Assembly (NCBI GenBank): GCA_046351395.1
Contig: JAXLYP010000017.1
Coordinates: forward strand, 193,508-246,456
Length of the DNA stretch: 52,949 nt
Direction: 5' to 3'
Source of the DNA: Polyangiaceae bacterium
GTDB taxonomy: Bacteria; Myxococcota_A; Polyangia; Polyangiales; Polyangiaceae
In this document: one piece after another, positions 10,516-52,800 of the stretch
Layout of the letters: each line of letters opens with the position of its first letter
How positions within the stretch are numbered: the stretch's first letter is position 1
Translations under genes and position numbers: made by a program
The notes under the pieces: model-generated
Told to the model about the DNA's origin: nothing
Seen by the model: the letters and a program-made list of their open reading frames with translations, nothing else
Databases searched by the model: none

Positions 10516-10516
10516 G

Positions 10517-15790: not shown

Positions 15791-15793
15791 GCG

Positions 15794-29636: not shown

Positions 29637-30266
29637 TCAAGGGCAGCCCCCATCGATCACGAGTCCAGTCCGGCCGAGCGGCTCGGCGTCGGGCGTCCAG
29701 TCGAGCCCGTCCGCGAACGACATCACGCCCTCCACGTCCACCGCGCAGGGGGGAGCTGAAATCGCGAGCTTCCCACCGAGCGAGGTCGCGTTCGCGATCT
29801 CGCCGATGGGTGTAGGCGGACCGATCCCGGTCCACGGCGCGCAGTCGTCCGCGTCGTGGGTGACGCGCGCGAACTTGATGAGATCGAGCGGGTATTGCCC
29901 GAGATCGACGACCTCCATCGAGAGCGCGTCGAGCCCGAGCTGGAAGCAGAGATCCCGCGCGTCGTCGCGCTTGAGGATCGCGACGGCCCCGGCGTTCGTG
30001 AAGAGGTTGATGGCGCTGTAGGCGTCGCAGGGACCCGCGCACGATCCACTCCCCGTGCTGCTCGACGCGCTCGCGCTCCCGGCTCCACTTCCGGTCGCGC
30101 TCGAGCCGACGGTCGTTCCGCCCCCATCATCCTCGAGCGTGGCGACGTCGCGACACGCGCCGAGGAGCACAATCGCGATCACGAGGGTCGCCCGCGGCGC
30201 CGTGCGCTCGCGAAGGAGTGCTCCGAGGGAGGTCCCTTGGGGTGCGGTTTCGCCGCGCGCCCTCAT
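29637..30266 (-). CDS. Cys-rich small lipoprotein
   Basis: LLGAC lipobox; ATGA overlap with the upstream tssC-like gene. Confidence 0.55.
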   Translation of the reverse strand: MRARGETAPQGTSLGALLRERTAPRATLVIAIVLLGACRDVATLEDDGGGTTVGSSATGSGAGSASASSSTGSGSCAGPCDAYSAINLFTNAGAVAILKRDDARDLCFQLGLDALSMEVVDLGQYPLDLIKFARVTHDADDCAPWTGIGPPTPIGEIANATSLGGKLAISAPPCAVDVEGVMSFADGLDWTPDAEPLGRTGLVIDGGCP

Positions 30267-31615
30267 GGATCGAGCGTCCCTTTCAAGCTGAGCGTGAAGA
30301 ACGCGCCCATGTGCTTGAAGTGCGGGCGCAGCCTCAGATCGAAGGAGCGCCACGCCTCGCCGTCGGTCGAGTCGCGCACGATCACCTGCACCTTCCGCAG
30401 CGGCCTTCGCCCCCGGAGCGCGGGGGGCACGACCTCCCGATCGGCGACGTATTGGCCCGCCCAGTCGTTGAGCTCGCGTTCGTCGTCCACTGCCGTCGTC
30501 GCCCATGATGGCTTTTCGACACGCCGAGGGGGCGCGCCCGGGACGAGCGCCTCTGGGTCGTTGATTTGGAAGGAGCGGTGCACCACCTTCAGGTACTGAC
30601 CAATCCTCGTGGAGATGAACACGTAGGGGAGCTCGGTGCCGAGCCGGTGGTTGAACTCGGCGGCGCGCGCCTCCTCCGAGTTGCCGAAGCGCTTGGGCTT
30701 CATGAGCGACCGCGCCGAGAAGAAGCCCGCGGACGTCGCGTCGACGAAGGAGAGGGGAATGAACCCCTCCTCCGACAGATCGTACTCGGTCCGCTCGCCG
30801 AGGTTCGCGTCGAGCGGCGAGATCGCGCCCTCGGGCGCGCGCGGCAGGTCCTCGATCAGGCCGTCCGCGCGCCCGACGATGTTCGGACACCAGCGGTACT
30901 TCGCGAACGACGACGTGAGGCGCGTCGCGAACGCAACGACCGCGAGCCCCCAAGCGAGATCTTCGGCGCGAGCGGTCTCGTCGTACGTGAAGCCCCCGAG
31001 CGTCTCGGTCGCCTCACGGGCAACGGCGAAGGGAGCGCGGAGGAGGAATCGGCCCACGGTGAGCCCCAGGAGGGATGCGCTCGCCTGGTCTCGCAGTGCA
31101 GCGAACGCGCGGTGATGCGCGGCGAAGTGCGCAAGAAGATCGACCGTGCCGATCGCGCGGCGGTCCTCGATCCCGAAGAAGCCTGGTGAGGCGGCCGCGA
31201 TGAAGGGGGCGAGGGAGCACGTCCCGACCTCCGCGATGCGCTCGAGGAGCGTGATGTCCTCCGGCGTGGGGTCGAACTCGAAGTCGGCGAGGATCGCCCC
31301 GTACGGTCGGTCGGTCGCGCCTCGGGCCGTCACCGCAAAGAACGCGCTCTCGCGCGCGGGCGCGCCGGAGCGCACGAGGTCGACGCGGAGCTCGTCGAGC
31401 GTACACGGGTAGAACGCGATCTCGATGTTCTCGCGGAAGTTCGTCCGCTCGACCAGGAACGCGAGGCTCCGCCACGCCCGCTCGAGGCGCTGGAACTTCG
31501 GGTGATGGAGGATCGCGTCGAGCTGCGCGGCGATCCGACGGTCCAGCGAGTCGATGATCGCGTCCGCGCGCGTGGCGGCGAGATCGACGAGGAGCGCATC
31601 ATCGTGCCGTACCAT
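30263..31615 (-). CDS. tssC: type VI secretion sheath large subunit TssC-like protein (N-terminally short, orphan)
   Basis: IAAQLDAILHHPKFQRLERAWRSLAFLVERTNFREN, FAKYRWCPNIVG, LGTELPYVFI and RPHFKHMGAFFTLSLKGTLD match conserved TssC/VipB blocks. Only about 20 aa precede the ILHHP block; the divergent DTW gene starts about 60 bp upstream. Confidence 0.8.
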   Translation of the reverse strand: MVRHDDALLVDLAATRADAIIDSLDRRIAAQLDAILHHPKFQRLERAWRSLAFLVERTNFRENIEIAFYPCTLDELRVDLVRSGAPARESAFFAVTARGATDRPYGAILADFEFDPTPEDITLLERIAEVGTCSLAPFIAAASPGFFGIEDRRAIGTVDLLAHFAAHHRAFAALRDQASASLLGLTVGRFLLRAPFAVAREATETLGGFTYDETARAEDLAWGLAVVAFATRLTSSFAKYRWCPNIVGRADGLIEDLPRAPEGAISPLDANLGERTEYDLSEEGFIPLSFVDATSAGFFSARSLMKPKRFGNSEEARAAEFNHRLGTELPYVFISTRIGQYLKVVHRSFQINDPEALVPGAPPRRVEKPSWATTAVDDERELNDWAGQYVADREVVPPALRGRRPLRKVQVIVRDSTDGEAWRSFDLRLRPHFKHMGAFFTLSLKGTLDP

Positions 31616-31675
31616 CCTGGCATTCGGACCTGCGCGACCTCGCTTGTCAAGGCACGGTGCGCCGATGAAGGCGCC

Positions 31676-32371
31676 GTGATAACGAGCGTCGTGGACGCGA
31701 CCCCGCCCGCCCCGAAACCCGACTCGACGCCTTGCGAGGTGTGCCGGCGTCCTCGCTTCGCGTGCGTGTGCGACCGCGTCGTCGCTTACCCCACCGAGCG
31801 GCGCGTGTTGATCCTGCAGCATCCGCAGGAGCAGGACGCGCTCCTCGGCACCGCGCAGCTCCTCGCGGCGAGCTTGCCGGCGGCGCGCATCGTCATCGGG
31901 TTGAGCTGGCCGAACCTCGGCGCGGCGCTCGGCGAGCCCGAGGTGGACGTGAAGAAGTGGGCGGTGTTGTTCCCCGATCGCGAAGCGGAAGGCGAGGGCG
32001 TCGCCACGCGCCGCGGAGCTCCGGTGGATCCGCGCGCGCTCTCGGGGATCGTCGTGCTCGATGGCACGTGGTCGAAGGCGAAGGCGCTCTGGTGGCGGAA
32101 CCCGTGGCTCACGAAGCTGCACCGCATGACGCTGAAGCCGAAGCAGCCCTCGATCTACGGCAGGCTGCGAGCGGAGCCGAAGCGCGAATACGTCTCCACG
32201 CTCGAGTCCGTGGGCGCCGCGCTCACGCTCTCGGGCGAACCCCCGGAGATCGAAGCGGGCCTCTCGCGCGTCTTTCGGACGCTCGTGCAGCGTGTCCGAG
32301 ACGCGGACGTCGCCCCCGAGGAGCGCAGGCTTTCGAAGAGCACGCGGCCCCCGCGACGACGGCCGGGCTGA
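31676..32371 (+). CDS. DTW-domain protein (tRNA acp3U-transferase-like)
   Basis: CEVCRRPRFACVCDRV and VVLDGTWSKAKALWW (DTW motif). GTG start at 31676 or 31691. Confidence 0.65.
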   Translation: MITSVVDATPPAPKPDSTPCEVCRRPRFACVCDRVVAYPTERRVLILQHPQEQDALLGTAQLLAASLPAARIVIGLSWPNLGAALGEPEVDVKKWAVLFPDREAEGEGVATRRGAPVDPRALSGIVVLDGTWSKAKALWWRNPWLTKLHRMTLKPKQPSIYGRLRAEPKREYVSTLESVGAALTLSGEPPEIEAGLSRVFRTLVQRVRDADVAPEERRLSKSTRPPRRRPG

Positions 32372-32622
32372 CTGGACGACCCGGCGTCTGCCCGTGGATA
32401 CGTGCGACGACCACCGAGCGCACGCAATTCCGCGGAGGACCGCGGCTGAATGGCTCCGTTCTGCGGCGGGTCCTCCACCGCATTCCACGACCGCCCTCCT
32501 GGGCGAAGTGGACAAAAGGCTCCGAATGTCCTCCTCGCGTTGGCGCGCGACGAGGAACTCCGCACGTCGCGGGTGCTCCGCGCGCCGCTCCCCGGGCCAA
32601 CGCGCTGATAGCGTCTCCATCG

Positions 32623-34107
32623 ATGGACGCAGAACCGGAGTCCGACGCTCGCGCGCCGTCGTCGGCGCCGACCTCCGCACCCCTGTCGGACGCGGAGCCC
32701 GCGGTGTCCACGCCAATGTCTGTCGCCGATCCGCCGCGACCCGAGCCCGCGCGACCGACGAGGCCCAGCCGAGATCGACGCGTCGTCGCGGGGATCGTGG
32801 CCGCGCTCGTGGCGGTCGCGGTCGCCGCGTGGGTGATCGTTCGCGCGCTCGCGGGAGCGCCGCGCGTCGCGTTCGGTGTGGCCGCGCTGTCGTCCGACGA
32901 GGCGATCCTCTTCACGCGCCGCGGGGACGGCGCGGCGGCGCGCGTGAACGCCGTCGAGCTCGTCCGCGCGACTGGAGGCCTCCGGTGGACTCATGACGTG
33001 AGCCCACTCGAACCGTTCGAGGTGTCCGGGTACTCCGCAGTCGCCGCGAGTGACGATCGCGTCGTCCTCTCCGGCGCCCGCGACGGGGGGACGGTCGTCG
33101 AAGCGCTCGTTCGGACGTCGGGCGACTTCGCGTGGGCGACCGTCGTCGCGCGGGACGCGTCCACGCCGCGCGCGGGGCCGATGCTGCTCGTGGACGCGCC
33201 TCGCGTGTACGCGATCCACGCGAAGGCGGGTGGGGGAGCGGCGATCACCGCGCTCGAGCTGGACGCGGGCCACGCGCTCTGGACGCTCGACCTCGCCTCG
33301 CCGGACGCGCCGGTCGTGCTGCTCGCGGCGGAGCGTCTCCTCGTCGGGGGGAGCGACGGCGTCGCGCTCGTCGACGGCGTCACCGGTGGAGTGAAGCGCG
33401 CGGTCCCGATGAGACAGATCGCGTGCGAGACGCCGCTCGGGGTCGTCGGGTTCGACGGGGCTCATCACGTGACCCTGTTCGCCCCGCCCGGGCCGACCGG
33501 TGAATCGGGGGCGTCGGTGACCGAGCTCGATCGAAATGCGTCGCGTGGCCCGTGCGGCGTGCGCGGCGAGGATGTGGTGTTCAGCGTCGTCCGGGACGGC
33601 AGGCGCGGCCTCATGCGACTCGAGCCGACGACGGGGAGGCAGCGGTGGATCGTGGATCTCGGCTCGGTCGAGCTCGGCGCATTCGAGACGGTCGACGGGC
33701 GGCTGCCCCGCTTCCTCCCCGTCGCGCTGACGCGTCGAGCGGACGACGCGACCCACGTGGCGGTCGTCGACGTGGACGAGGGCGTCGTCGTCAGAGACCC
33801 ACCCATCGACGCGCGCGCGAGCGCGTTCGTGAGCGCTGAGCGCGCGTGGATTCGCGCCGGTTCGGTGATCGTCGCCCTCGACCCTGCGACGGGGAACATC
33901 GAGCGCGCAACCTCCTATCCCTCGCTCTTTCGGGAGGGCGTCGTCCGTCGCGACGACGCGCGGTTCGGTGTCCTCTTCGCCGTCGGGGACGACAGTCGCC
34001 GTCCCCCCGACCTACCGTGGATCGCGATCGATCTCGCGACCGCGCTCACGCGCCGCACGAACGGTGGGGTCGCGTCGACCGACGTGACGGCTCGCGGCTG
34101 GCCCTGA
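32623..34107 (+). CDS. membrane-anchored PQQ-like beta-propeller repeat protein
   Basis: Acidic N-terminus, TM (VVAGIVAALVAVAVAAWVIV), and repeated ...GHALWTLDL / ALDPATGNI propeller blades. Confidence 0.6.
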   Translation: MDAEPESDARAPSSAPTSAPLSDAEPAVSTPMSVADPPRPEPARPTRPSRDRRVVAGIVAALVAVAVAAWVIVRALAGAPRVAFGVAALSSDEAILFTRRGDGAAARVNAVELVRATGGLRWTHDVSPLEPFEVSGYSAVAASDDRVVLSGARDGGTVVEALVRTSGDFAWATVVARDASTPRAGPMLLVDAPRVYAIHAKAGGGAAITALELDAGHALWTLDLASPDAPVVLLAAERLLVGGSDGVALVDGVTGGVKRAVPMRQIACETPLGVVGFDGAHHVTLFAPPGPTGESGASVTELDRNASRGPCGVRGEDVVFSVVRDGRRGLMRLEPTTGRQRWIVDLGSVELGAFETVDGRLPRFLPVALTRRADDATHVAVVDVDEGVVVRDPPIDARASAFVSAERAWIRAGSVIVALDPATGNIERATSYPSLFREGVVRRDDARFGVLFAVGDDSRRPPDLPWIAIDLATALTRRTNGGVASTDVTARGWP

Positions 34108-36679: not shown

Positions 36680-37753
36680 GTGACGACCTCCATTCCGCCA
36701 GCGTTCGACGAGGCGCTCGACCCTGCTCCGAGATGTGAGGACGCCGTCGCCATCCTGGACGCGCTCAGCGCTGCGGTGCTCGCGGCGCGCTCCGACGGCG
36801 TCATCACGTGGGCGAACCCATGGGCTGCGCGCGTCCTCCGGCGCTCACGGGCCTCGATCATCGGGCGAAACCTCGCGGATGTGCTGCCTCTCTCGTTCGC
36901 GGTCGGGGAGGACACGCCCTCGGAGCACCGCCGCGGTGAGCTCACTTATCAAGCGGACGACGGCTCCCGTTGTCAGCTCGGATTTTCGCTCGCTCGGCGG
37001 GCCGTCACGGCGCCGGACGAGGTCGCCATCATCGCGCTGTTCCAAGAGATCTCGAGCCTCATCGAGCTGCGACGCCAGCGCGATCGACTCCTCCAGATGG
37101 CGGCGCTCGGGGACGCCCTCCCAGCGGTGCTCCACGAGGTCCGCAACCCGCTCGCGGCGATCACCACGGCGCTGGAGGTTTTGACCGAAGACGAGGGGCC
37201 GCTGCAAGCGGATCTCCACGCGGTTCTGAACGAGGCGCGCCGCGCCACCCTGACGCTCGACGGGCTCGGGGGCCTCGCGCGCGAAACCCACAGTCGGAAG
37301 TGGGAAGCCATCGATCACGCGGTCGCGGAGGCCACCCGAGTGCTCGAACCCACCGCCGCGAGGCGGGGTATTTCCCTTCGAACGACGGGGCCGGCGCTCC
37401 CGCTCCTGCCGCTCGATCGCGCGGCGATCAGCGGCGTGGTGTTCAATCTCGTGCGCAATGCCATCGACGCGTGCGGCGAGGGTGATGTGGTCGCCGTCGA
37501 GGCCCGTTTGCCGTCGCCGAACGAGTTCCTGCTCGAGGTTCGCGACACGGGCCATGGCATGTCCGTTCCCATCGTGAAGCGCTGCACGGAGCTCTTCTTC
37601 ACGACGAAGGATACCGGGTCTGGGATTGGGCTCGCATTGTGCAAGCGGTTCGCGGAGTCGTCGGGAGGATCGCTGGAAGTGGAGAGCGAACTCGGGCGGG
37701 GGACGACGGTATCGGTTCGCGTCGCTCTCCGCACCGACGCACGAGGAGGGTGA
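36680..37753 (+). CDS. PAS-domain sensor histidine kinase
   Basis: HisKA H-box LHEVRNPLAAI; HATPase N/G boxes (NLVRNAIDA, DTGHGM, GSGIGLAL). Confidence 0.75.
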   Translation: MTTSIPPAFDEALDPAPRCEDAVAILDALSAAVLAARSDGVITWANPWAARVLRRSRASIIGRNLADVLPLSFAVGEDTPSEHRRGELTYQADDGSRCQLGFSLARRAVTAPDEVAIIALFQEISSLIELRRQRDRLLQMAALGDALPAVLHEVRNPLAAITTALEVLTEDEGPLQADLHAVLNEARRATLTLDGLGGLARETHSRKWEAIDHAVAEATRVLEPTAARRGISLRTTGPALPLLPLDRAAISGVVFNLVRNAIDACGEGDVVAVEARLPSPNEFLLEVRDTGHGMSVPIVKRCTELFFTTKDTGSGIGLALCKRFAESSGGSLEVESELGRGTTVSVRVALRTDARGG

Positions 37754-37754
37754 C

Positions 37755-38120
37755 ATGTCACGTGTCGACAACCTGAACAAGATTCTACGTGGGCTGCAGA
37801 GCGCTTCGCCGGACGTCGAGGCGAGCGCGCTCATCTCGGACGATGGGCTCATGATCGCGAGCGCCCTGCCACAGCACATCGACGAGACGCGCGTCGCCGG
37901 GATGAGCGCCACGCTCTCGAGCCTGGGTACGCGCGCGGCGGCCGAGCTCGAGCGCGGCAACGTCGAGGAGGTCCTCGTGCGGGGCTCGAACGGCTATGCC
38001 GTCATGCTCGCCGCGGGGTCCGGGACGCTCCTCTTGGTCCTTGCGAGCAAGCAGGCGAAGCTCGGCCTCATCTTCCTCGACATGCGTCGGGCGGTCGACG
38101 ACATCCGTCGCGTCCTCTAG
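37755..38120 (+). CDS. Roadblock/LC7 (MglB-like) domain protein
   Basis: GAGGAGGG immediately upstream of ATG; ...ASALISDDGLMIASALP...GYAVMLAAGSGTLLLVLAS... typical Roadblock fold. Confidence 0.7.
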   Translation: MSRVDNLNKILRGLQSASPDVEASALISDDGLMIASALPQHIDETRVAGMSATLSSLGTRAAAELERGNVEEVLVRGSNGYAVMLAAGSGTLLLVLASKQAKLGLIFLDMRRAVDDIRRVL

Positions 38121-38294
38121 ACCCGTTCGAGAAGCGAGCAGATCCCCGGGCCCGGGCGCGACAAAGCGTCATCGGGGTGACGCCCGAGCGTCATCGTTTT
38201 GACAGTCTTCGCGCGATCCACGCGTTAGAACGTACCCAACAGCCGATCGATAGGAGGGGGTCTTCGATGCCCAATACGATTTTGTTCGATCAAG

Positions 38295-39026
38295 GTGCCC
38301 ACAAGAACGTCCTGCTCGAGGACGTGTCCGCGGGCAGCCACGCCCGTACAAGCCAATCAGCACGTCATCGTCGACCACGCGTCGGGCATGATCCTCGACC
38401 CGGGCGGACACAAGGTCTACTCGAAGGTCCTCTCCGGCACGCTCGCCACCCTCGGCAAGGCGAAGCTCGAGATCCTGTTCCTGTCGCACCAAGATCCGGA
38501 CATCGTCGCCGCGACGAATGGCTGGCTGATGACCACGGACGCCGTGGGCTACGTCTCCGCGCTGTGGACTCGGTTCGTCCCGCATTTCGGGCTCGATCAC
38601 CTCGTCCAGTCCCGCCTCCTGCCGATCCCGGACGAGGGCATGCGGATGAAGCTGGGCCAGAGCGAGCTGCTCATCCTCCCCGCGCACTTCCTCCACTCGC
38701 CGGGAAACTTCCACGTCTACGACCCCGTCTCGAAGATCCTCTACAGCGGCGATCTCGGGGCATCCATTGGTGGGGATTACGTCGAGGTGACCGACTTCGA
38801 CGCGCACCTCCCACTCATGGCGGGGTTTCACCGGCGCTACATGGCTGGGGGGGCCGCGATGCGCGGCTGGGCGAAGATGGTCCGCCAGTTGCCGATCGAG
38901 ATCATCGCGCCGCAGCACGGGGCGCTGTTTCGCGGGAAGGAGATGGTCGATCGGTTCATTGGATGGTGCGAGGGCATGCAGTGCGGACTGGATGTGATGG
39001 GCGATGGTTACCGCATCCCCGCTTGA
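38295..39026 (+). CDS. MBL-like (FprA/ODP-type) metallo-hydrolase-fold protein; probable true start ATG 38267 with a +1 frameshift near 38335-38345
   Basis: ILFLSHQDPDIVAATNGWL and PQHGALF blocks. AGGAGGGGG plus ATG at 38267 encodes MPNTILFDQGAHKNVLLEDVSAGSHA in a neighbouring frame; dropping one C in gcccgta would join it to VQANQHVIVDHASGMILDPGG. Confidence 0.55.
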   Translation: MPTRTSCSRTCPRAATPVQANQHVIVDHASGMILDPGGHKVYSKVLSGTLATLGKAKLEILFLSHQDPDIVAATNGWLMTTDAVGYVSALWTRFVPHFGLDHLVQSRLLPIPDEGMRMKLGQSELLILPAHFLHSPGNFHVYDPVSKILYSGDLGASIGGDYVEVTDFDAHLPLMAGFHRRYMAGGAAMRGWAKMVRQLPIEIIAPQHGALFRGKEMVDRFIGWCEGMQCGLDVMGDGYRIPA

Positions 39027-40158
39027 GTCCCCGCGCCGCACCGTGCTCGTCGTGGAGGACGAGCCGATGCTGCGCGCCTCGATGGTCAAGGGGCTCGCGA
39101 AGCTCTCGTCGGTCGCGCTCGTCGACGCCGGCTCGCTGCGAGAGGCGCGGCGACTCGCCGAGCTGCACCGCCCCGTGCTGGTCGTGAGCGATCTCGACCT
39201 GCCCGACGGCTCGGGGATCGAAATGGCGTCGACGCTCGACGAGCTCGGTCTTCGCGTCCCGATCCTGTTCGTGTCGGCCTACGTGCGGGAGTACCAGGGG
39301 CGATTGCCGAAGCGGCCGGGGATCGAGGTCTACGAGAAGCCGCTGCCCCTCGAGCGCCTTCGGAGCGCGGTGGAGGCGCACCTCGGGATCGAAGCCGAGG
39401 CTTCGCCGTTCGGTGTGATCGACTTCGTCCAGCTCGCCGGCATGGGGCGGCGCTCGGTCGTCATCGAGGTGCGAGGCCGGATCGCGGGGAGCGGGCGAAT
39501 CGTCATCCGCGCGGGCGAGGTGTGGTCGGCGCGCGACGAGCGGGGCGAAGGAATGGAAGCGTTCAAGCGCCTCGCGTTCCTTCGGGACGCGGTCGTCACG
39601 TGCCGCTCGTTCGATCGTCGCGACTCGTCTCCTCGCATCATCCAAGGGGGCTGCGAGAGTGTCCTGCTCGAGGCGGCGCGCCAGTACGACGAAGCGGGCG
39701 GGGCGCCGCCGGAGCGCGACGAGCTCGGCGACCTCGACGAGGGCTGGGACTCCCGAGACGCGGGCCGCGGTGACAGCTGGGAAGGCTCCGCGCGGTCGCA
39801 CGACCCCGTCGTCTCGTCCACGCCGGTGCCGCCCGGCCGGCATCGGTCCGAGGTTCGCCCGGTCGTGCCGGAGCCCCGAGGGGAATGGCGCTCCGCGACC
39901 CTGACGCCCGCGGTCGACGAGCCGCCGCCGACTCAGCCCTCGACGCGACTTCGTGACGTCGATCCGCGCGAGCTCGCGACGGTCGCACGGCTCGCGGCGG
40001 GGTTCTCCGACGTGTACGAGCGGGGCGTCGACGCGCTGCTCGCGAAGGACTATCGCAAAGCGTACGCGGCGTTCCTCGAAGCGCGAGAGCTCTCGCCGGA
40101 GGACCGGCGGGTCGAAGCGAACCTCGTCCGCCTCCGAGAGATGGGGTTCGGAACGTGA
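39004..40158 (+). CDS. response regulator (receiver) with DUF4388 domain and Pro/Arg-rich C-terminal region
   Basis: RTVLVVEDEPMLR...LVVSDLDLPDGSG; DUF4388-like GVIDFVQLAGMGRRSVVIEVRG...GEGMEAFKRLAFL. Confidence 0.7.
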   Translation: MVTASPLESPRRTVLVVEDEPMLRASMVKGLAKLSSVALVDAGSLREARRLAELHRPVLVVSDLDLPDGSGIEMASTLDELGLRVPILFVSAYVREYQGRLPKRPGIEVYEKPLPLERLRSAVEAHLGIEAEASPFGVIDFVQLAGMGRRSVVIEVRGRIAGSGRIVIRAGEVWSARDERGEGMEAFKRLAFLRDAVVTCRSFDRRDSSPRIIQGGCESVLLEAARQYDEAGGAPPERDELGDLDEGWDSRDAGRGDSWEGSARSHDPVVSSTPVPPGRHRSEVRPVVPEPRGEWRSATLTPAVDEPPPTQPSTRLRDVDPRELATVARLAAGFSDVYERGVDALLAKDYRKAYAAFLEARELSPEDRRVEANLVRLREMGFGT

Positions 40159-40817
40159 GGCGCGCCGCGTTCGCCGTTCCCGGAGAGGAACTCGGAGTAT
40201 GGGCGCCCGCCACGCTCCTGTCGTGCGGCGCCCTGGGCGCGGTCGTCGTCGCGGTCCTCCTCGGATCCCCCGCCGTCCCCGCGGAGGCGAGCTCGATGTC
40301 GCGCGCGACGCCGGGCGCGGAGGGCGCCGCAGCGACGGTGTCCACGGACGCGATCCGCCCGCCGACCGCGCCGTCGATCGCGCCGCCGCCGCCTGCACCG
40401 AGCGCGATCGCTGCACCCCCGGGCCCCTCGGGGTCGGGCGGGGCGATCCCTCAATGTCCACCCGTGCGGGTGGGCTTCCAATCGAACGCGTTCGGCCCGA
40501 GCCCCGCGGCGATCACCGAGCTCGACCGGCTCGCGGCGTGGCTGCGCGAACATTCGGACACGACGCTCGTCGTGAGCGGGCACGCCGACGCGGTGGGCAC
40601 GGAGGACGGCAATTTGCGCCTCAGTCACATCCGCGCGGAGTCGATCGCGCGAGAGCTCTCGGCGCGAGGGGTGGCTCGGAGCCGCATGACGGTGCGGGGG
40701 TATGGAGCCTATCAGCCCCTCGAGGGCGTGCTCGAGGACGCCGCAGACAATCGAAGGGTCGTCATCTATGTCCGCGGGGATTGTCTCCGCGGCTTCGAGG
40801 AGGTCATAGGACCATGA
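40155..40817 (+). CDS. OmpA/MotB-like peptidoglycan-binding domain protein with Pro-rich linker
   Basis: GTGA overlap with the RR stop; TM/signal; OmpA-like block LVVSGHADAVGTEDGNLRLSHIRAESIARELSARGV...RGYGAYQP. Confidence 0.65.
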   Translation: MRRAAFAVPGEELGVWAPATLLSCGALGAVVVAVLLGSPAVPAEASSMSRATPGAEGAAATVSTDAIRPPTAPSIAPPPPAPSAIAAPPGPSGSGGAIPQCPPVRVGFQSNAFGPSPAAITELDRLAAWLREHSDTTLVVSGHADAVGTEDGNLRLSHIRAESIARELSARGVARSRMTVRGYGAYQPLEGVLEDAADNRRVVIYVRGDCLRGFEEVIGP

Positions 40818-41746
40818 TCGTGACACTCACCTTGGTCACCGTGGGCGCGGCGTCCGCGTTGCTGGGCTCGGGATACCTCTTCGGTGCGCGGCGGGGGCGA
40901 ACGGCGCGCGCTGCGCTCGCGGCGCACGCGGAGTCGCGCGAGGTCGCGCTGCGCGAGGCGGAGTCGAGGCTGTCGCTCGAGCGGCGGACGGCGGAGAGCG
41001 ACGCGGCGCGAAGACGGGAGCTCGAGTCGATCCTCGTCCCGCTCACGCGTCAAACCCAGACCTCGAACGAGGAGCTCGAGAAGGTGGAGGAGCTCAAGCG
41101 AGAGGTGCGGGCGATCGCCCGGTCCCTCGCGGAGCGCGACAGCCATCAAGACGAGCTCCGACGCGAAGTCCGGGGCGCGCTCGCGTCGTTCGCGAAGCAG
41201 CCCGGGGACGAGGCGAAGCTCGAGGGCCACGTGCGACGGCTCGTCGCGCCGCTCCTCCAGCGCGAGGAGCAGTCGGAGAAGCTGCGCGACGCGCTGCAGG
41301 AGGTGCTCCGACCCATGATCGAGCGGGAGCGCATGGGACGCGATCTCGCGCGCCTCCCGCCGTCCACGAGCGGGCTCGGCGGGCTCCCCAAGCTGCTCGA
41401 CGCGATCGCCGAGCGGGGCGGGTTCACCGCGGTGGTGCTGAGCGACGACGTGGGGCTCCCGCTCGCGGCGAGCGCGGGCGCCCTGGACGTCGAGACGCTG
41501 GCGGGCTCCTCGTCGCTGCTCCTCACGCTCGCGGACCGCGCCGCGCGCGATGGCGCACCCCCGCCCCAGGCGGTCGTCGTTCGCGACGCGTCGAACCAGA
41601 CACTCCTTCACCGCATCTTCCGCGTCGGGGACGAACGCTTCATGCTGACGGCGGTCGCCCGCGGCGTCGAGATCGCGACGGGCGCGCTGGATCCGGCGCT
41701 TGGAACGCTGGAGCGCGCGCTCGCGCGCAACAACATCGCGGCGTGA
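40814..41746 (+). CDS. membrane-anchored coiled-coil protein with C-terminal Roadblock/LC7-like domain
   Basis: ATGA overlap; N-terminal TM; long coiled coil; C-terminus GGFTAVVLSDDVGLPLAASAGALD...ERFMLTAVARG. Confidence 0.5.
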   Translation: MIVTLTLVTVGAASALLGSGYLFGARRGRTARAALAAHAESREVALREAESRLSLERRTAESDAARRRELESILVPLTRQTQTSNEELEKVEELKREVRAIARSLAERDSHQDELRREVRGALASFAKQPGDEAKLEGHVRRLVAPLLQREEQSEKLRDALQEVLRPMIERERMGRDLARLPPSTSGLGGLPKLLDAIAERGGFTAVVLSDDVGLPLAASAGALDVETLAGSSSLLLTLADRAARDGAPPPQAVVVRDASNQTLLHRIFRVGDERFMLTAVARGVEIATGALDPALGTLERALARNNIAA

Positions 41747-47180: not shown

Positions 47181-48072
47181 CGGGCGCCGCGTGGACGGAT
47201 TGGATGTACGCGCTCGGTGATGCGCCGACGACGCGCTTGAAGTCGCGCGCGAAGTGGGCCTGATCGGAGTAGCCGAGGGCGAGCGCGAGATCGGCGAGGG
47301 ATGGGGGCGAGGGGGCCTTGAGGCGCTCCGCGGCTTCATGGAGTCGATAGCGAGCGAGCACCCACTTCGGGGTGACGCCGACGAAGCGCTGGAACTGGCG
47401 CTGGAGGGTGCGGACGTCGACGCGCGCGATCCGCGCGACGTCCTCGACGCGCACGAGGGTTCGATCCTCGGAGATCCGCTCCACGAGGTCGCGGACGCGC
47501 GCGATCTCGACGGGGGGGCGCTCGAGGCGGGGGCGGAGGAAGGCTTCGGACGCGTCGATCCGCGCCGCGGTGTCCGGGAGGGATGCGATGAGGCGCCCGA
47601 GCTCGATTCCAGGGGCGCCGAACAGGTCCTCGATGGGGACGACCTTCCCCGTGAGGGTGTGGAGCGAGCGCCCGAGGACGGGGTGGAAGCAGGCGGGTCG
47701 GAATTTGATGCCGAACACCCAGCCATCCCCGTGGAGCGTGCGCTCGAAGCGCGCGCGGGGCACGCCGCTCACCTCGGCGGTCGGGGCGCGTCTGGATTGC
47801 TGGCTCTCGAAGAGGATGTGGACCGTGGGGTGCGGGAGCGTCGCGGCGGTGAAGGGGGCACGAAGGGCCCATTGGACGCTCCAGAAGTGGGCGATGCTGT
47901 GCGCGAGCGCGGCGGAAGGCGCGACGCGATCGTGATGTGTGGTGCCGTTCGGTGCGGGCGGATGGGCGTGAAGGACGCCTCTCGGCGGACCGAGTCGGGG
48001 GCTCTGCGAGCTGAACCGGTCGTGGGCCGACGAACTGAGTGCACGTGCGGGCCGAGGCGTCAGACCCGTCAT
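47110..48072 (-). CDS. AraC-family transcriptional regulator (start uncertain)
   Basis: LADLALALGYSDQAHFARDFKRVVGASPSAY helix-turn-helix near the C-terminus. Confidence 0.55.
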   Translation of the reverse strand: MTGLTPRPARALSSSAHDRFSSQSPRLGPPRGVLHAHPPAPNGTTHHDRVAPSAALAHSIAHFWSVQWALRAPFTAATLPHPTVHILFESQQSRRAPTAEVSGVPRARFERTLHGDGWVFGIKFRPACFHPVLGRSLHTLTGKVVPIEDLFGAPGIELGRLIASLPDTAARIDASEAFLRPRLERPPVEIARVRDLVERISEDRTLVRVEDVARIARVDVRTLQRQFQRFVGVTPKWVLARYRLHEAAERLKAPSPPSLADLALALGYSDQAHFARDFKRVVGASPSAYIQSVHAAPVSAGSTAAARAPSRSASSPRTRA

Positions 48073-48426
48073 CGTAGGTGAAGGAGCGCGACTCGGGGGG
48101 GTTGGGTGGGCCCCCACTCGCGCGCTGGCGCGCGCGGTCTCCCCCTTGTCCGTGCTCGGGCGCGCCCGCGGCGGTGACTTTTTCGTGCGGGGCGCTCGTG
48201 CGGCGCGCCCTGCGCGCGGACGGGGGAGACAGGTCCGACTCACCCCACCCGCTGGATCGTGTGGCGACGATCGACAAGACCCGGTCGCGGCTCCGAGGGT
48301 GCCTCCATGTCGCGAGCCCGGGCTTCAATGCGGGGTATCGGGGGACCGCTCTCCTCGCATCTTGGAGGCGGTAGCCGCCCCCTCGCGCCTATCGCGCGCG
48401 GCGACTCACGTCGCGCGGGGTGCGGT

Positions 48427-48478
48427 GAAGACTCATGCCCCCAAGTTCCCACGTGCGCGAGATGGACACTACTGCGCG
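48427..48478. repeat. about 50-bp repeat, copy 1 (pairs with 50163..50216)
   Basis: gaagactcatgcccccaagt.c..acgtgcgcgagatggac.cta.tgcgc shared directly. Confidence 0.6.
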
Positions 48479-50106
48479 GGAAGCTTCAGCGTCTCCGCGC
48501 CGGATCCGTCGTCGCCCTTGCCGCCGGCATCCGATGCACCACCCAGCCCGCCGCCCGCTCGCGTGGACGTGAAGCCAGCGGCCGGTGCCGAGGTCACGTA
48601 GGCGATTGCCAACGAGTGTCCGCCGTGGCCGCCGCCACCCGCGCCGCCATTGCTGCCCTGGCCTCCCTTGCCTCCATCGCAGGCCGTCGGGGTGCCGGCG
48701 CCAGAGCCGGCATTGCCGCCCTTTCCGCCGACCGCACCAAACTGTCCAGCTGCGCCGCTTCCGCCGGCGCCACCCTTGCCGACGGTGAAGCTCACGCCCG
48801 AGAGAGTTGGGGCCGCGCCCAGGACGATCATCCCGATGCTCGCGCCCCCAGCGCCGCCTCCGGGGGCTCCGTGGCCCCCGCAACCGCCCGCGCCGCCGCC
48901 GCCCCTGCTCGCGCCGCGAATGTCTGCGAGAGGCGGCGTCACGTCCTTGAGTCCCTTCGCGCCGCCGCCTCCGCCTCCGAGGCCGGGACGCCCGTCCTCG
49001 CCGACTCCGCCGGAAGCTCCTGCGTAGCCCATCGAGGAGATTGTCCCCGGCAGGGTCGCGTTCGGGCCCGGCATGACGGAGGCGCCGTTGGAGCCCTGAT
49101 GTCCGGGCGCGCAGCCACCCCCCATGTCACCAGGTCCTCCCACGCCATCATTCCCCGCCACAATCGGGGGCGTTGGCGTCGCAGTCCCATCATCACCCTT
49201 TATGCCGTCGCTTGCGACCGCAACGACCTTTCCACCCTCTCCTCCAGCCCCGCCAGTGGTCGTGCAAAACGGGTTCGTCCCCGGGAGTCCACCTGGATTG
49301 GTCATGGTCGGCGTGGTCGTGTTGGCGTCGGCCCCGACGCCGCCCGCGATGGGGGCGGCCATCGAGTTTGTCGGACCGATGTTGTCCGTCGGCGTGGTGC
49401 TGTCCTGTCCCGCGGCAGCGTCGCCCGTCTCCACGTCCACGTCCGCAAACACGGACGGGACCTCGCCCACGATCACTCCAATCGCGCTCGAGCCCGGCGC
49501 CGCGCCCGCAGTCGCAAGGACCTTCAGGCGGTCGACCTCCGTCGTCCCCTGACCATCCGCCAGCCTCAGGCCGATCTCGCCCGCATCCGGCTCGAGCGTG
49601 GTGCGCGCGTCCGCCGCCTTGATCTTGTACCCCGCCGAACAATCCAGGCCGCCATACACGACCACCCCCGCCGGAAGCACGATGCCGCTCGTGTCCGTCA
49701 GCGCGCCCTCACAGACATAGATCGTCTTGCCCGCCGTCCACGCGATGACCGCGGCGCTCAACGTCTTGAGGGGCGCCGCCATCGTCCCCGCCTGCATGTT
49801 GTCGCCCCCCACCGGGTCGACGAACACCCCGCACGAGTCCCCCTTCGTCGGACCGCTCGTCAGAGACACGGCGCAGTCCATCGACACCCCCGTGCTGCTC
49901 GACGTCATCGTCGCGGATGACGAATTCGTCATGCTCGCCGCCGTCGTACTCGAGGTCGCGCCTCCTGCGCCCCCGGAGCAAGGAGCCGAGTGATCCGCGC
50001 AGGAGTCCGTGGACTCCGAGGGGCACCCGGCCATGAGGCTCGCGAGCGCGAGCGACGCCACGAGCGCGCAGGCGCTGGTCTTGATGTGCGAACGAGGAAG
50101 CGTCAT
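48469..50106 (-). CDS. DUF1565-like (parallel beta-helix) lipoprotein with Gly-rich C-terminal region, paralog A
   Basis: Lipobox LMAGC; ...PLKTLSAAVIAWTAGKTIYVCEGALTD...; long (GGx)n region. Confidence 0.6.
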   Translation of the reverse strand: MTLPRSHIKTSACALVASLALASLMAGCPSESTDSCADHSAPCSGGAGGATSSTTAASMTNSSSATMTSSSTGVSMDCAVSLTSGPTKGDSCGVFVDPVGGDNMQAGTMAAPLKTLSAAVIAWTAGKTIYVCEGALTDTSGIVLPAGVVVYGGLDCSAGYKIKAADARTTLEPDAGEIGLRLADGQGTTEVDRLKVLATAGAAPGSSAIGVIVGEVPSVFADVDVETGDAAAGQDSTTPTDNIGPTNSMAAPIAGGVGADANTTTPTMTNPGGLPGTNPFCTTTGGAGGEGGKVVAVASDGIKGDDGTATPTPPIVAGNDGVGGPGDMGGGCAPGHQGSNGASVMPGPNATLPGTISSMGYAGASGGVGEDGRPGLGGGGGGAKGLKDVTPPLADIRGASRGGGGAGGCGGHGAPGGGAGGASIGMIVLGAAPTLSGVSFTVGKGGAGGSGAAGQFGAVGGKGGNAGSGAGTPTACDGGKGGQGSNGGAGGGGHGGHSLAIAYVTSAPAAGFTSTRAGGGLGGASDAGGKGDDGSGAETLKLPAQ

Positions 50107-50162
50107 GGGTGTTCTCCGAACGGAGCGGCAGTTGGAGGGCGGAGGAGTGTGCGTGCGCGGAC

Positions 50163-50216
50163 GAAGACTCATGCCCCCAAGTCTTCTTACGTGCGCGAGA
50201 TGGACGCTATTGCGCC
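50163..50216. repeat. about 50-bp repeat, copy 2, with perfect hairpin GAAGACT-N10-AGTCTTC
   Basis: See copy 1. Lies 57 nt upstream of paralog A's start. Confidence 0.6.
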
Positions 50217-50298
50217 GAAAGTTAAAATTCTCGTGCCGCGGCCTCCTACGCTCGAGTCCAACCCCAACGAATCCCATGGTCGAGACTGCCGAAGCCAT

Positions 50299-51897
50299 TC
50301 ATTCGGGCAACTCCATGGACGCCGCGACGCTGCCGTCTGCGCCACTCGTCGCCTGATCAATACCGTTCGAGCCACCGCTGCCGCCCATGCCGGCGGTTCC
50401 GGGAGACGCGACTGTGGGCATCTCCGTCGGTGGCGATCCCGCATAGGCCACCGCGATAGCGTGCCCGCCACGACCGCCGCCCCCAGACCCGCCGTTCCCG
50501 CCGGAACCTCCAGTGCCACCACCACACGCGGGTTTGACGCCCCCGCCGCCCATACCCCCGCCCATGCCTGTGCCCCCCAGCTGACCAAGCTGCCCGTTCC
50601 CGCCTCTACCGCCGACGCCACCCGACCCGAGCGAGATGGAGACATTGCTGAATGAGATCGTCGAGTGGAACGACAGAACGCCGATGCTCGAGCCACCGCC
50701 GCCGCCACCGGTTCCCTTGGTACCCCCACAGCCCCCCGCACCGCCACTCCCGCCGCCAGCCCCGTGCACTGTGGCCGTGGCCTTCGATCCCCCGCCGCCT
50801 CCCGCGCCTTGGCCCCTCTTTCCAGATCCGCCGTCGCCACCCGACGCGTTTGCATAGGCGCCCGCCGTCAGCTGTCCGAAGGTACTCATCGATGCCCCTT
50901 GCCCGGTTGAGCCATCCATTCCGCCCGCGCCGAACCCTCCACCACCAACTCCGGTCGCGCAACTCCACATCACGCCGCCGTTGTCGCCGATTCCGCCCAG
51001 CGTGGGACCCAGGTTGTCGTCTCCATTGTCTCCGGCGGCTCCGTTTCCGTTCATGATGGTGCCTCCGTCACCGCCCTTGCCACCATTGCTTACACCGTCC
51101 GGGCACGTGTTGTTGGCCGATTTTGCGCCACCCGCAAGCATCACGTCTGCTGCATTCTTGCCAGGGTTGCCGCCTGGCGCCTGATTGGCCTGCGGCCCAC
51201 CGTCGACGCCGGCAGACCCGGGGGCGCCATCTCCGCCCACGAGTACCGCGTTGTTGATGTCCAGGGTGGCATTCGCAGCATGAACTACTACGCTCGAGGC
51301 TCCCATCGTGGTCGCCTTGGGTGAGGTCAGGTCGATTGAATCGACCACCGAGCCCCCTGAACCAGTGATAGAGAGTGCCGGCTGGTTGACGGATCCCATC
51401 ACCTGGGGGTGAGGGTTGGAGTGCGAAAACGTCCAGTCGGTGCATGACAGCCCGCCGAGCAGGGAAATGCCGCCTGGCAGTGTGATGGAACCGTCGAAGG
51501 ATCCGCTGCCGCAGACATATACGCGTGGCTTCTCACTCGTCGTTGCAGCAACGGCCTCAGCGATACTCCCCAGAGGATCCATCTGAGTTCCGCCTCCCGA
51601 CGCCCCCTGCTTTACGAACACGCCACACTCGGCACCGACCGGCTTCCCCTCGACGAGCGCACATTGCTCAGGGGTTCCGGTCGAGGAAGACACTGTTGAC
51701 GTACTCGTCATGCTCGCCGCCGTCGTGCTGGACGACCCCGAGCCACCACCCGTTCCCGACGGGCAGCCCGCGTCGTACAGTTCGGGGTGTGTGTTGCAGG
51801 TGTTCTCTTGGTCGAAGAACACGCATGAGCCCGTCAAGCAGGCGGCGACCAGCGAAAGTGCGATGGAACCTCGGGTCAACTGTCGCTGGCTTCTCAT
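50299..51897 (-). CDS. DUF1565-like lipoprotein with Gly-rich C-terminal region, paralog B
   Basis: Lipobox LTGSC; ...PLGSIAEAVAATTSEKPRVYVCGSGSFDGSI...; Gly-rich tail. Confidence 0.6.
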   Translation of the reverse strand: MRSQRQLTRGSIALSLVAACLTGSCVFFDQENTCNTHPELYDAGCPSGTGGGSGSSSTTAASMTSTSTVSSSTGTPEQCALVEGKPVGAECGVFVKQGASGGGTQMDPLGSIAEAVAATTSEKPRVYVCGSGSFDGSITLPGGISLLGGLSCTDWTFSHSNPHPQVMGSVNQPALSITGSGGSVVDSIDLTSPKATTMGASSVVVHAANATLDINNAVLVGGDGAPGSAGVDGGPQANQAPGGNPGKNAADVMLAGGAKSANNTCPDGVSNGGKGGDGGTIMNGNGAAGDNGDDNLGPTLGGIGDNGGVMWSCATGVGGGGFGAGGMDGSTGQGASMSTFGQLTAGAYANASGGDGGSGKRGQGAGGGGGSKATATVHGAGGGSGGAGGCGGTKGTGGGGGGSSIGVLSFHSTISFSNVSISLGSGGVGGRGGNGQLGQLGGTGMGGGMGGGGVKPACGGGTGGSGGNGGSGGGGRGGHAIAVAYAGSPPTEMPTVASPGTAGMGGSGGSNGIDQATSGADGSVAASMELPE

Positions 51898-51921
51898 GTT
51901 TCAAATCTCCAAGCTTCGGAA

Positions 51922-52800
51922 TCAGAAGTGCGTCGAGAGCTCGACGCCGAACGCATCTGTGCTGACGATGGGGACGACGGCCACGGGCGCGGGCTCGGAC
52001 TGTGGCTTTCCCAGCGCCCATATCAAGAGGACTGTGGAGGGGATGGCCACTACGCCCGCGCTGATGAACAACCACGGAGACGCGTTGCTCAACGTTCGCT
52101 TGTTCGTTTCGAAGTCCGTCCCCGCCTCGCACGGGTAGGAAGGGCAGTGAAAGTCCGGGTCGGCATTGGCCGCGACAGCGGTTCCAATGCCCGCACCGAG
52201 GAGTCCCGCGGTCACGCTCAGGCCCAAGATGGCCGGCCAAATCGGTCTGTGCTGCCCGGGCGGAGGCGTCGTCGGAAAAGGGATGACCACGGGCTCTGGT
52301 GGCTTCGTGCCCGCCACCGCATCGAAGTCCACCGCACCCTTCTTGGCGCCCGAGGTCGCTTCGAAGTGGTGCTTGCCCGGGTCCAAGAACAGCGTGATGG
52401 GGCCGCGTCCCATAGGCTGTGAATCGATGGTGATATCCGCCGAGGTCTCGGCACCCTGCACCGTCAGCTCGGCCACGTGCTCCTTCGCCTTCTTCAGGGC
52501 GTCCAGAAAGTCCTGCTCGACTCCCGACGTCGAATTCTTCGCGTAGAACGCGATGTGCGTCGCCCCCTCGCGGTACTTTCCGAGCTCGACCTCACACTTC
52601 CCCTGAAGTCCGCGGATCTGGCCGTGCTGGAAAATGGCCCACGCTGCTTCGGCTTTTGCGACGCACTCGCTCCAATCCTTTCGCCCCGCGGCGATTCCGG
52701 CCTGTTCGAACACCTTGGCGGCATCGTCCGCCGGGTCTGCGCTCGCCACCCCCGCCACGCTCATGGCGGCGAGTGAGGCGATCATCCATGACGCTTTCAC
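51922..52800 (-). CDS. secreted hypothetical protein with C-terminal TM segments; lower GC than its neighbours
   Basis: GGAGGGAG upstream of a GTG start that overlaps the upstream stop (GTGA); signal peptide MKASWMIASLAAMSVAGVASA; ends in Phe. Confidence 0.5.
   Translation of the reverse strand: MKASWMIASLAAMSVAGVASADPADDAAKVFEQAGIAAGRKDWSECVAKAEAAWAIFQHGQIRGLQGKCEVELGKYREGATHIAFYAKNSTSGVEQDFLDALKKAKEHVAELTVQGAETSADITIDSQPMGRGPITLFLDPGKHHFEATSGAKKGAVDFDAVAGTKPPEPVVIPFPTTPPPGQHRPIWPAILGLSVTAGLLGAGIGTAVAANADPDFHCPSYPCEAGTDFETNKRTLSNASPWLFISAGVVAIPSTVLLIWALGKPQSEPAPVAVVPIVSTDAFGVELSTHF

Follow-up and report, generated by a model that had tools for sequence, protein, structure and literature searches.

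A six-gene operon of uncultured Polyangia combines a predicted gas-responsive two-component system with soluble and membrane-anchored Roadblock proteins but no linked GTPase

What might two Roadblock proteins be doing in a gene cluster that encodes no small GTPase? The question is raised by six same-strand genes at positions 36680–41746 (+) of a 52,949-nt stretch of DNA (hereafter, the window) from a Polyangiaceae bacterium (assembly GCA_046351395.1, contig JAXLYP010000017.1, positions 193,508–246,456). An earlier note on this DNA had read the cluster as a PAS histidine kinase, a Roadblock/LC7 protein, a metallo-β-lactamase (MBL)-like protein of FprA/ODP type, a receiver-DUF4388 regulator, an OmpA/MotB-like protein and a membrane coiled-coil protein with a Roadblock-like C-terminus. 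All six genes were found there, in that order, and, as judged from codon-position G+C and from reading of the sequence, they fill the interval exactly; the domain assignments were upheld for five of the proteins by Pfam, and for the sixth by structure prediction. We propose that together they encode a two-component pathway that responds to O2 (or to a related diatomic gas or redox signal) and is assembled on a Roadblock scaffold, a reading to which we give somewhat better than even chances.

The G+C content of the window is ~70%, and shadow frames consequently dominate the raw lists of open reading frames (ORFs). The first gene, G1 (36680–37753, +), encodes a soluble sensor histidine kinase of 357 residues, and a 1-nt spacer separates its stop codon from the ATG of G2 (37755–38120, +), a stand-alone Roadblock/LC7 protein of 121 residues with an AGGAGG ribosome-binding site (37743–37748) 6 nt upstream of its start. 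A gap of 146 nt leads to G3 (38267–39026, +), an oxygen-binding di-iron protein (ODP) with the MBL fold, whose intact product has 252 residues and which is here split over two frames; it overlaps by 23 nt, in the window, with G4 (39004–40158, +), a response regulator of 384 residues with receiver (REC) and PATAN domains. G5 (40155–40817, +), a predicted inner-membrane-anchored OmpA_C peptidoglycan-binding protein of 220 residues, overlaps G4 through GTGA and G6 (40814–41746, +), a membrane-anchored Roadblock protein of 310 residues, through ATGA. These overlapping junctions and the strong ribosome-binding site of the Roadblock gene, both reported previously, can be read directly in the sequence. 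Exact-protein look-ups returned a match for G2, and none for G4 or G6. Within the operon, there is no signal for an internal terminator above shuffled expectation in the window, nor any match to an Rfam element; a promoter scan of the window also gave no match, which at 70% GC is uninformative. The 146-nt gap between G2 and G3 contains a weak hairpin followed by T residues, and an attenuator or riboswitch was considered at this position and rejected: the folding z-score is −0.64 relative to shuffles, the hairpin is not kept in a related locus (L001) and there is no Rfam match.

Neighbourhood look-ups for homologs of G6 and G2, a scan of GTDB species representatives and tblastn mapping gave ~28 independent loci in which the order kinase–Roadblock–ODP–regulator–OmpA–G6 recurs with unrelated flanks. 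All come from uncultured organisms, represented by metagenome-assembled genomes (MAGs), nearly all of which are labelled Polyangiaceae, Labilithrix, Kofleriaceae, 'Myxococcales' or 'Deltaproteobacteria', and the sources are activated sludge, soil and groundwater. One Polyangiaceae MAG (L009) carries two complete six-gene copies in tandem (5966–10840 and 11099–15901), and thus the operon duplicates as a block. Moreover, the median overlap across loci is 4 nt at each of the ODP–regulator, regulator–OmpA and OmpA–G6 junctions (21–23 junctions measured per pair). From the recurring order with unrelated flanks, the tandem copies and the conserved overlaps, it follows that the six genes constitute one operon, as had been supposed, and one under selection, rather than chance neighbours.

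Mean pairwise identity is highest for the G2 Roadblock, at 86% among 24 orthologs; the values for the remainder are 70% for the ODP G3, 65% for a protoglobin that occurs in some of the loci (see below), 52% for the regulator G4, 51% for the kinase G1, 46% for G6 and 38% for the OmpA protein G5. Within G6, the Roadblock domain is the most conserved part (57%, compared with 33% for the coiled coil). The Roadblock, a gas sensor and G6 are kept in every locus where these positions can be assessed, whereas the kinase, the regulator and the OmpA protein can be swapped or lost. Locus L019 keeps the Roadblock, ODP, OmpA and G6 genes and is without the usual kinase and REC-PATAN regulator, the run being followed by a REC-GerE protein and an HD-GYP/HDOD/PAS/HisKA kinase; in L029, an MFS transporter occupies the kinase position. 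The OmpA gene is absent from L021, L022 and L030, the last of which encodes a 381-residue G6 homolog with two transmembrane (TM) segments, and then an 820-residue Cys-rich predicted lipoprotein with no Pfam match (13325–15787), which may be an alternative periplasmic partner. Enzymes of cyclic di-GMP (c-di-GMP) metabolism recur beside the operon: a REC-EAL gene starts at the G6 stop codon in L005 (10909–12213), another is present in L012 (3979–5109), the kinase of L019 carries HD-GYP (11746–15027), a PAS-GGDEF-EAL gene lies 10 nt upstream of the kinase gene in L038/L039 (L038, 5286–7220), and in L033 a REC-GGDEF gene (3845–5446) and a gene for hemerythrin, which is an O2-binding protein, lie a few kb upstream. 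Their recurrence suggests that the pathway may have a second-messenger branch.

The kinase and the regulator have the hallmarks of a classical two-component pair, namely, an H-box and ATP-binding boxes in the one, and an acidic receiver pocket with a phospho-acceptor Asp in the other; both genes are present in 22 of the 25 loci that allow the two positions to be assessed. In G1, Pfam recognizes a PAS domain (residues ~22–104), HisKA (144–190, with the H-box LHEVRNPLAA) and HATPase_c (247–350; 75.5 bits), in keeping with the initial description. The motifs of the H, N, G1, F and G2 boxes (LHE[VL]RNPLAA, NLV[RK]NA, D.G.GM, LF[FY]T.K and GSGIGL, respectively) are conserved in 23 orthologs, and by these motifs the protein is predicted to have all the catalytic elements of a HisKA kinase. 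Its sequence shows no TM segment, and its C-terminus, which reads ...RTDARGG, is without LPxR. G4 comprises a Response_reg domain (residues 14–123) and DUF4388/PATAN (136–231), the latter with a score of 26.5 bits against a cutoff of 25; nevertheless, all 22 of the G4 orthologs match DUF4388 (best E-value 2.9e-8), and three of the 22 also match TPR, so that the receiver-DUF4388 assignment holds. The receiver pocket is formed by E18/D19, D63 (in DLDLPDGSG), S91 (FVSA) and K112 (EKP), and among the 22 sequences D19, D63, E111, K112, P113 and the DLDLPDGSG motif are invariant; on the basis of these residues, G4 is predicted to be a phosphorylatable REC-PATAN regulator. The PATAN domain is followed by a Pro-rich linker that is variable and carries an acidic motif, DDGW, and then by a conserved, TPR-like helical hairpin of ~55 residues (~321–384) at the C-terminus. 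The domain order is REC then PATAN, and the PatA-type order, PATAN then REC, is not found. A single-sequence structure model of G4 was poor (pLDDT 48).

The candidate sensor is G3, a member of the MBL superfamily that matches the Pfam family ODP (PF19583) over profile positions 1–194 with 226.5 bits (E-value 3.5e-67). The protein has a single domain of 252 residues with no flavodoxin or rubredoxin domain, and because the flavodoxin domain is missing we assign it as ODP-type and not as an FprA enzyme; of the former FprA/ODP-type label, therefore, only the second half stands. When the frame is repaired, the closest structures in the PDB are 6QRQ/6QWO (3e-69) and 6QNM/6R9N (8e-63), and the di-iron ligand motifs HQDPD, HFLHS, SGD and PQHG are identical to those in 6QRQ and 6QNM and invariant in 25 orthologs. 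The repair concerns a break that the earlier note had overlooked: the N-terminal part, MPNTILFDQGAHKNVLLEDVSAG, lies in another frame than the rest of G3 and, by blastn of a 99.85%-identical contig (L002) against the window, the frame is broken by one inserted nucleotide, an additional C in the run at 38343–38345 (+), where the window has CCC and L002 has CC, with a G-to-A difference at 38336, seven bases upstream of it. Both L002 and the 85%-identical L001 encode an intact 252-residue ODP. Given that similar frame breaks occur in other MAG loci (in the ODP gene of L008 and L025, and in the regulator gene of L015), a consensus error is the likeliest cause, and the frameshift is probably of this kind, or a sequencing error, rather than real.

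In most loci, the ODP gene is the sole gene for a gas sensor. However, a 180-residue protoglobin adjoins the ODP in L003/L013, L005 and L008, and is encoded at a different position in L038/L039, whereas in L006 the protoglobin is present and the ODP absent; in the window, tblastn revealed no protoglobin remnant. The ODP and protoglobin families both bind O2. The strongest available evidence for a gas input is that two unrelated O2-binding folds occupy one slot in a signalling operon, and judging by these sequences O2, or a diatomic gas related to it, is the probable input. The earlier suggestion that the MBL-like protein may sense O2 or NO is thereby strengthened, as it also is by the nearness of G3 to solved ODPs and by its invariant ligand motifs. 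Additionally, the operon protoglobins (L003, 7177–7719; L005, 6976–7518; L006, 7830–8366; L008, 7232–7771) share a strongly conserved C-terminal tail, FTGMKRxLIENIIR[IL]PKK, which may be a docking peptide.

The Roadblock call for G2 is secure: it matches Robl_LC7 (PF03259) with 56.7 bits against a cutoff of 23 (E-value 2.1e-15) and, in the PDB, 7F8M (2e-31), an Asgard MK-D1 Roadblock (2e-13), CvnB5 (3LEQ; 5e-11) and MglB (8e-4), with no match to MglC (7CT3/7CY1) even at E-values up to 1. By sequence, G2 is thus closer to an Asgard Roadblock, probably Thor-RB, and to actinobacterial CvnB than to MglB. The 7F8M sequence falls in a Thorarchaeota family, to one member of which G2 is 47% identical; an identification of 7F8M as MglC was rejected, since MglC corresponds to 7CT3/7CY1 and the 7F8M family is thorarchaeal, and it is probably the Thor-RB of PMC10933270, although the PDB code does not appear in the text of that paper. 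Thor-RB is without the basic patch of MglB and is described as a likely protein–protein scaffold (Tran et al., PMC10933270). The thorarchaeal homolog of G2 (L035, 8001–8363) ends a same-strand run that comprises a Ras-like GTPase, a TPR protein and a 1287-residue protein, and a relative in Zixibacteria is encoded two genes away from those for a GAF-HisKA kinase and a sigma-54 regulator. The likeness across domains (47%) could reflect either transfer or extreme constraint.

The second Roadblock protein, G6, has an N-terminal TM helix (residues 2–24, followed by RRGR), a cytoplasmic coiled coil and a C-terminal Roadblock domain. Its sequence gives no Pfam match at E-values up to 0.01 and stays below the gathering score of Robl_LC7 (PF03259). 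Homologs form clusters (n = 55), none with a Pfam domain in any member, and those that are named are all of Myxococcota type; one from a Polyangiaceae MAG (U0414_27470) is 100% identical. An alignment of 30 members displays a conserved TM helix ending in SGYLFGARRG, a variable coiled coil and ~125 conserved residues at the C-terminus. From this alignment, AlphaFold2 gave a model with a mean pLDDT of 84 (≥93 over residues 188–309) and the order α-β-β-α-β-β-β-α, and in Foldseek searches of the PDB the Roadblock-fold domain (residues 186–310; 41369–41743, +) was matched with probability 1.00, a best E-value of 1.6e-6 (MglB, 6HJM) and target-normalized TM-scores of 0.65–0.70. The matches include MglB from Myxococcus xanthus and Thermus thermophilus, the LAMTOR subunits of Ragulator, the C-terminal domains of Rag/Gtr, Asgard Roadblock3 and the CvnB-like Streptomyces Roadblock 3KYE; structural comparison, which could have disproved the proposed Roadblock-like C-terminus, has instead confirmed it. 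With hhalign, the G6 profile aligns in register, although weakly, to G2 (E-value 0.0068), and a search with the profile against PDB sequences returned coiled-coil noise only. An exhaustive profile search found just 294 representatives at E-values up to 1e-3 among 1.84e9 proteins, and the family is accordingly small and distinct: as modelled, G6 represents a membrane-anchored Roadblock-fold family that PF03259 does not detect.

G5 matches Pfam OmpA with 54.7 bits (E-value 1.4e-14); the domain (residues 110–190) is flanked by two invariant Cys residues, and in the ortholog alignment the peptidoglycan-binding motifs GHAD..G and NRRV are conserved, with the Asp and Arg of the site present. The N-terminus comprises a conserved cytoplasmic VPGE(D/E)L motif, a TM helix (~17–38) and a Pro/Ala linker and, because the motif is conserved ahead of the TM helix, it is likely to stay in place as an anchor and not to be cleaved off as a signal peptide. 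G5 is therefore predicted, from its sequence, to be an inner-membrane-anchored peptidoglycan binder; the NCBIfam models that it matches best, all with scores below cutoff, are those of Pal/YiaD/YfiB-type peptidoglycan anchors. It had been called MotB-like, and this is apt for the topology, an N-terminal TM segment plus OmpA_C, but not in the sense of a stator, since no acidic residue is present in the TM helix in the ortholog alignment and no gene for a MotA_ExbB partner lies within the operon in any locus. Similarly, the cluster had been described as envelope-spanning, which goes too far: G5 has its anchor in the inner membrane, and the cluster includes no component of the outer membrane. Two further ideas were rejected: that G5 is a lipoprotein, as the Cys of 'LLSC' is not conserved in orthologs, and a role in anti-phage defence, for which PADLOC gave generic MotB/OmpA matches only.

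As had been noted, no GTPase accompanies these genes. Scanned ORFs across the 53-kb window gave no Pfam match to Ras, Arf, MglA or any other small GTPase, and tblastn of MglA and H-Ras against the window found nothing better than an E-value of 0.075. Likewise, tblastn of MglA against loci L001–L029 gave no match at E-values up to 1e-5, and precomputed Pfam tables list none in the bacterial neighbourhoods examined (flanks of up to 10 kb on each side); the adjacent cognate MglA-family GTPase that is characteristic of an MglB-type GTPase-activating protein (GAP) is thus found neither in the window nor in L001–L029. To treat its absence as an anomaly was, however, an overstatement: 328 of the 749 members of the MglB family are orphans (PMC4316618), and the Roadblock MglC serves as an adaptor between RomR and MglB (PMC7949163, PMC12719032).

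In the mechanism that we propose, the ODP, joined or replaced by the protoglobin in relatives, would bind O2 and alter its contacts with the PAS kinase, either directly or via G2, which would itself pair Roadblock-to-Roadblock with the cytoplasmic domain of G6. With G6 fixed in the inner membrane and linked to peptidoglycan via G5, the sensing complex would be placed at a fixed site in the envelope, comparable to the membrane-anchored Roadblock dimers of Ragulator or to the MglB/MglC/RomR assembly. G1 would phosphorylate Asp63 of G4, and the PATAN domain and C-terminal hairpin of G4 would act through protein–protein contacts rather than by binding DNA, the likely targets being a motility or secretion ATPase, plus the c-di-GMP enzymes beside the operon. 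No G protein would be needed within the module, although an unlinked MglA-family GTPase could be a downstream client. These steps are drawn from three analogies: CvnF8 stimulates the kinase CvnA8, with CvnB as the proposed link to downstream components (PMC13343842); RomR uses its C-terminal helix to bind the Roadblock MglC, with nanomolar affinity (PMC12719032); and PATAN, as an output domain, binds PilB1 and PilC (bioRxiv 10.1101/2021.06.11.447907). The output probably passes through PATAN contacts and c-di-GMP enzymes. The Zixibacteria relative of G2, two genes from a histidine kinase, provides a precedent for the pairing of Roadblock and kinase within the family, and we count the mean identity of G2 (86%, against ~51% for the kinase and the regulator) as support for its being a putative hub. 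More tentatively, and here we are inclined to doubt, G2 and G6 might form a Ragulator-like platform without any G protein, its clients being interchangeable O2 sensors and the kinase; if so, an ancient fold of GTPase platforms would serve in bacterial signalling as a sensor-to-kinase adaptor that is fixed to the cell wall.

Several points weigh against an O2-responsive pathway on a Roadblock scaffold. Every contact among its parts is inferred from synteny and analogy; the PATAN fold of G4 is predicted from near-threshold Pfam scores; c-di-GMP genes adjoin the operon in only ~5 of the 28 loci; and all loci are from MAGs, in which some gene starts and frames are uncertain, one of them a 4-kb contig of 67% G+C that is labelled Chromatiaceae and may be mis-binned. 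In this assembly, the ODP is frameshifted and there is no protoglobin and, if the frameshift were real, this copy would be without an intact sensor. Finally, only 53 kb of the genome is in view, and a partner GTPase may lie elsewhere. Indeed, G2 and/or G6 could be GAPs or guanine nucleotide exchange factors for an unlinked MglA/SofG-like GTPase, with the operon as the sensory input that sets the nucleotide state of this GTPase and so places polarity or motility under O2 control, a reading that overlaps, and is partly compatible, with ours, yet which we regard as unlikely. Myxococcota generally encode MglA-family GTPases, the fold of the G6 Roadblock domain is most similar to that of MglB by Foldseek, and in archaea the relatives of G2 come last in a same-strand run of genes, the first of which encodes a Ras-like GTPase. 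Furthermore, PATAN genes are often located near mglA/mglB, according to a passage of PMC4316618 that cites Makarova 2006, and CvnB/MfpD-type Roadblocks, to which G2 is akin (CvnB5, 5e-11), are GAPs (PMC13343842). Against this, coevolving MglA/MglB pairs are normally adjacent, MglA being coupled in 390 of 449 cases (PMC4316618), and yet there is no GTPase in the flanks (up to 10 kb on each side) of the ~28 loci or in the 53-kb window; the likeness of G2 to MglB is weak (8e-4), and a complete output path from kinase to regulator is already present in the operon.

The remaining alternatives fare worse. The ODP and protoglobin might be protective, detoxifying O2, NO or reactive oxygen species, in which case the operon would be a stress unit and the kinase would sense through its own PAS domain. 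The ODP does belong to the MBL/flavodiiron lineage and weakly matches flavorubredoxin and A-type flavoprotein, and the PAS domain of G1 could bind a cofactor of its own, but we consider this improbable: G3 has no flavodoxin or rubredoxin domain for electron transfer, its close relatives are ODPs that are described, in the account of Muok 2019 given by PMC7319448, as O2/Fe(II) sensors recruited to signalling, and the alternation of two unrelated O2-binding folds near signalling genes suits sensors better than enzymes. It is more improbable still that G5 and G6 form an energized envelope machine, MotB/stator-like or Tol/Exb-like, which the soluble proteins regulate. The MotB-like topology of G5 and its weak matches to MotB, MotD and ZorB models (via OmpA_C) would fit such a machine, whereas the lack of a conserved acidic residue in the TM helix, the loss of G5 from three loci and the closer, albeit sub-cutoff, likeness to Pal/YiaD/YfiB-type anchors do not, and it is largely refuted by the absent channel-forming partner, as a MotA, ExbB or TolQ gene is found in the operon of no locus. 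Least probable of all, to the point that we scarcely entertain it, is that the genes adjoin by chance or without co-transcription: the weak hairpin with T residues in the 146-nt Roadblock–ODP gap would be in its favour, but that hairpin is not kept in L001 and its folding z-score is unremarkable (−0.64), whereas the order is kept in ~28 loci with differing flanks, the whole unit is duplicated in L009 and the start/stop overlaps are kept across loci. The comparative data thus effectively refute this possibility.

How, then, does the operon compare with known systems? Among the closest is the actinobacterial conservon, in which, as here, a kinase gene directly precedes a small Roadblock gene (G2 matches CvnB5, 3LEQ, at 5e-11) and the kinase is acted upon by CvnF8, a soluble accessory protein of sensor type (PMC13343842), the role that is proposed here for the ODP or protoglobin. 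In contrast to conservons, the operon lacks CvnC (DUF742, for which the Pfam scans gave no match) and the CvnD GTPase, and with them the four-gene core; G1 is a soluble PAS-HisKA protein without the HAMP domain, TM segments and LPxR tail of CvnA; a canonical response regulator is present here and in no conservon; and the hosts are Myxococcota rather than Actinomycetota. In outline, the operon resembles a conservon from which the G protein has disappeared and to which a response regulator has been added. The MglA/MglB/MglC/RomR/RomX polarity module of M. xanthus likewise combines, in a myxobacterial host, two Roadblocks with a REC protein in which a Pro-rich linker is accompanied by a conserved helical region at the C-terminus; there, however, no single operon unites the genes with those for a kinase and gas sensors, while here there is no linked MglA, G2 matches MglB at 8e-4 and does not match MglC, G6 is membrane-anchored and G4 has a PATAN domain that is absent in RomR. 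Ragulator and Asgard Roadblocks are similar in that membrane-tethered Roadblock dimers act as a signalling platform, and G6 matches LAMTOR by Foldseek, an analogy of architecture only: the clients of Ragulator are Rag GTPases, and the tether here is a TM helix and coiled coil rather than lipidation.

Among the other parts, the ODPs of Treponema denticola and Thermotoga maritima (6R9N/6QNM, 6QRQ/6QWO) share with G3 its length, single-domain di-iron MBL fold and metal-ligand motifs, and also, according to PMC7319448 on Muok 2019, their encoding in a signalling operon. The characterized ODP signals to a chemoreceptor/CheA array, whereas the partners here would be a PAS-HisKA kinase and Roadblocks, and a protoglobin may join or replace it. 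Cyanobacterial PixE, PixG, LsiR and PatA, like G4, contain REC and PATAN/DUF4388 in one protein, but in G4 the order is the reverse of the PatA type (REC-PATAN), with an additional linker and TPR-like hairpin, and in our operon the kinase is not of CheA type and there is no pilus gene. Lastly, Group 1 Rup neighbourhoods (Wuichet and Sogaard-Andersen 2014, PMC4316618) bring together a coiled-coil protein, a TM-OmpA protein, and a kinase or c-di-GMP enzyme, as does this operon; the Rup GTPase is absent here, and no Roadblock, ODP or PATAN is described for those neighbourhoods in PMC4316618.

Full-text literature searches that combined the components found no description of the operon. Each part is from a known family, and the occurrence of ODPs in signalling operons, the proximity of PATAN genes to mglB and the existence of orphan MglBs have already been noted in the literature; it is the combination that appears to be new, in which a two-component system is joined by stand-alone gas sensors and by a soluble/membrane Roadblock pair. 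Nearly half of bacterial MglB-family Roadblocks lack a GTPase gene alongside, and little is known of their roles. The operon supplies a well-defined, strongly conserved case: synteny singles out the partners, which comprise a kinase and a regulator, O2 sensors of two kinds and a tether in the membrane, and the role of an orphan Roadblock becomes testable with few recombinant proteins. As a conservon-like system minus its G protein, it would also be useful for finding out what a kinase–Roadblock pair does alone. If our reading is correct, the use of ODPs as sensors extends from chemoreceptor arrays to two-component kinases, with a di-iron sensor and a haem sensor occupying one slot; moreover, the modelled G6 defines a Roadblock-fold family beyond the reach of Pfam. 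The hosts are uncultured Polyangia from habitats in which gradients of oxygen are important: activated sludge, soil and groundwater.

Some other features of the window and of the related loci deserve mention. In three loci, type VI secretion genes lie no more than 10 kb from the operon, which may be coincidence: the window has a gene for a TssC/VipB-like sheath protein (30263–32716, −), the long ORF of which overlaps a DTW-domain gene on the opposite strand, such that its true start is probably at ~31560, VgrG and PAAR genes are present in L006 (14851–20046), and a VgrG gene in L030 (18427–19881). Two genes of the window (7693–10515, −; 21720–23159, +) match the TLC ATP/ADP-transporter family, known chiefly from plastids and from bacteria with an obligate intracellular life, and one of them is fused to HEAT repeats. 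Three paralogs of the PAP2 phosphatase superfamily are clustered (13558–14649, +; 14774–15790, +; 16722–17639, −). A Ser/Thr protein kinase is fused to an FGE-sulfatase domain, which is sulfatase-modifying-factor-like (26076–27797, +), and the same fusion is seen at the edge of L039. Near 48 kb, the GC skew changes sign, from +0.17 to −0.11, and the G+C content falls to 0.655 (about 48000–52000); these changes coincide with a switch to two long minus-strand ORFs (48469–50298 and 50299–51897) that have no Pfam match.

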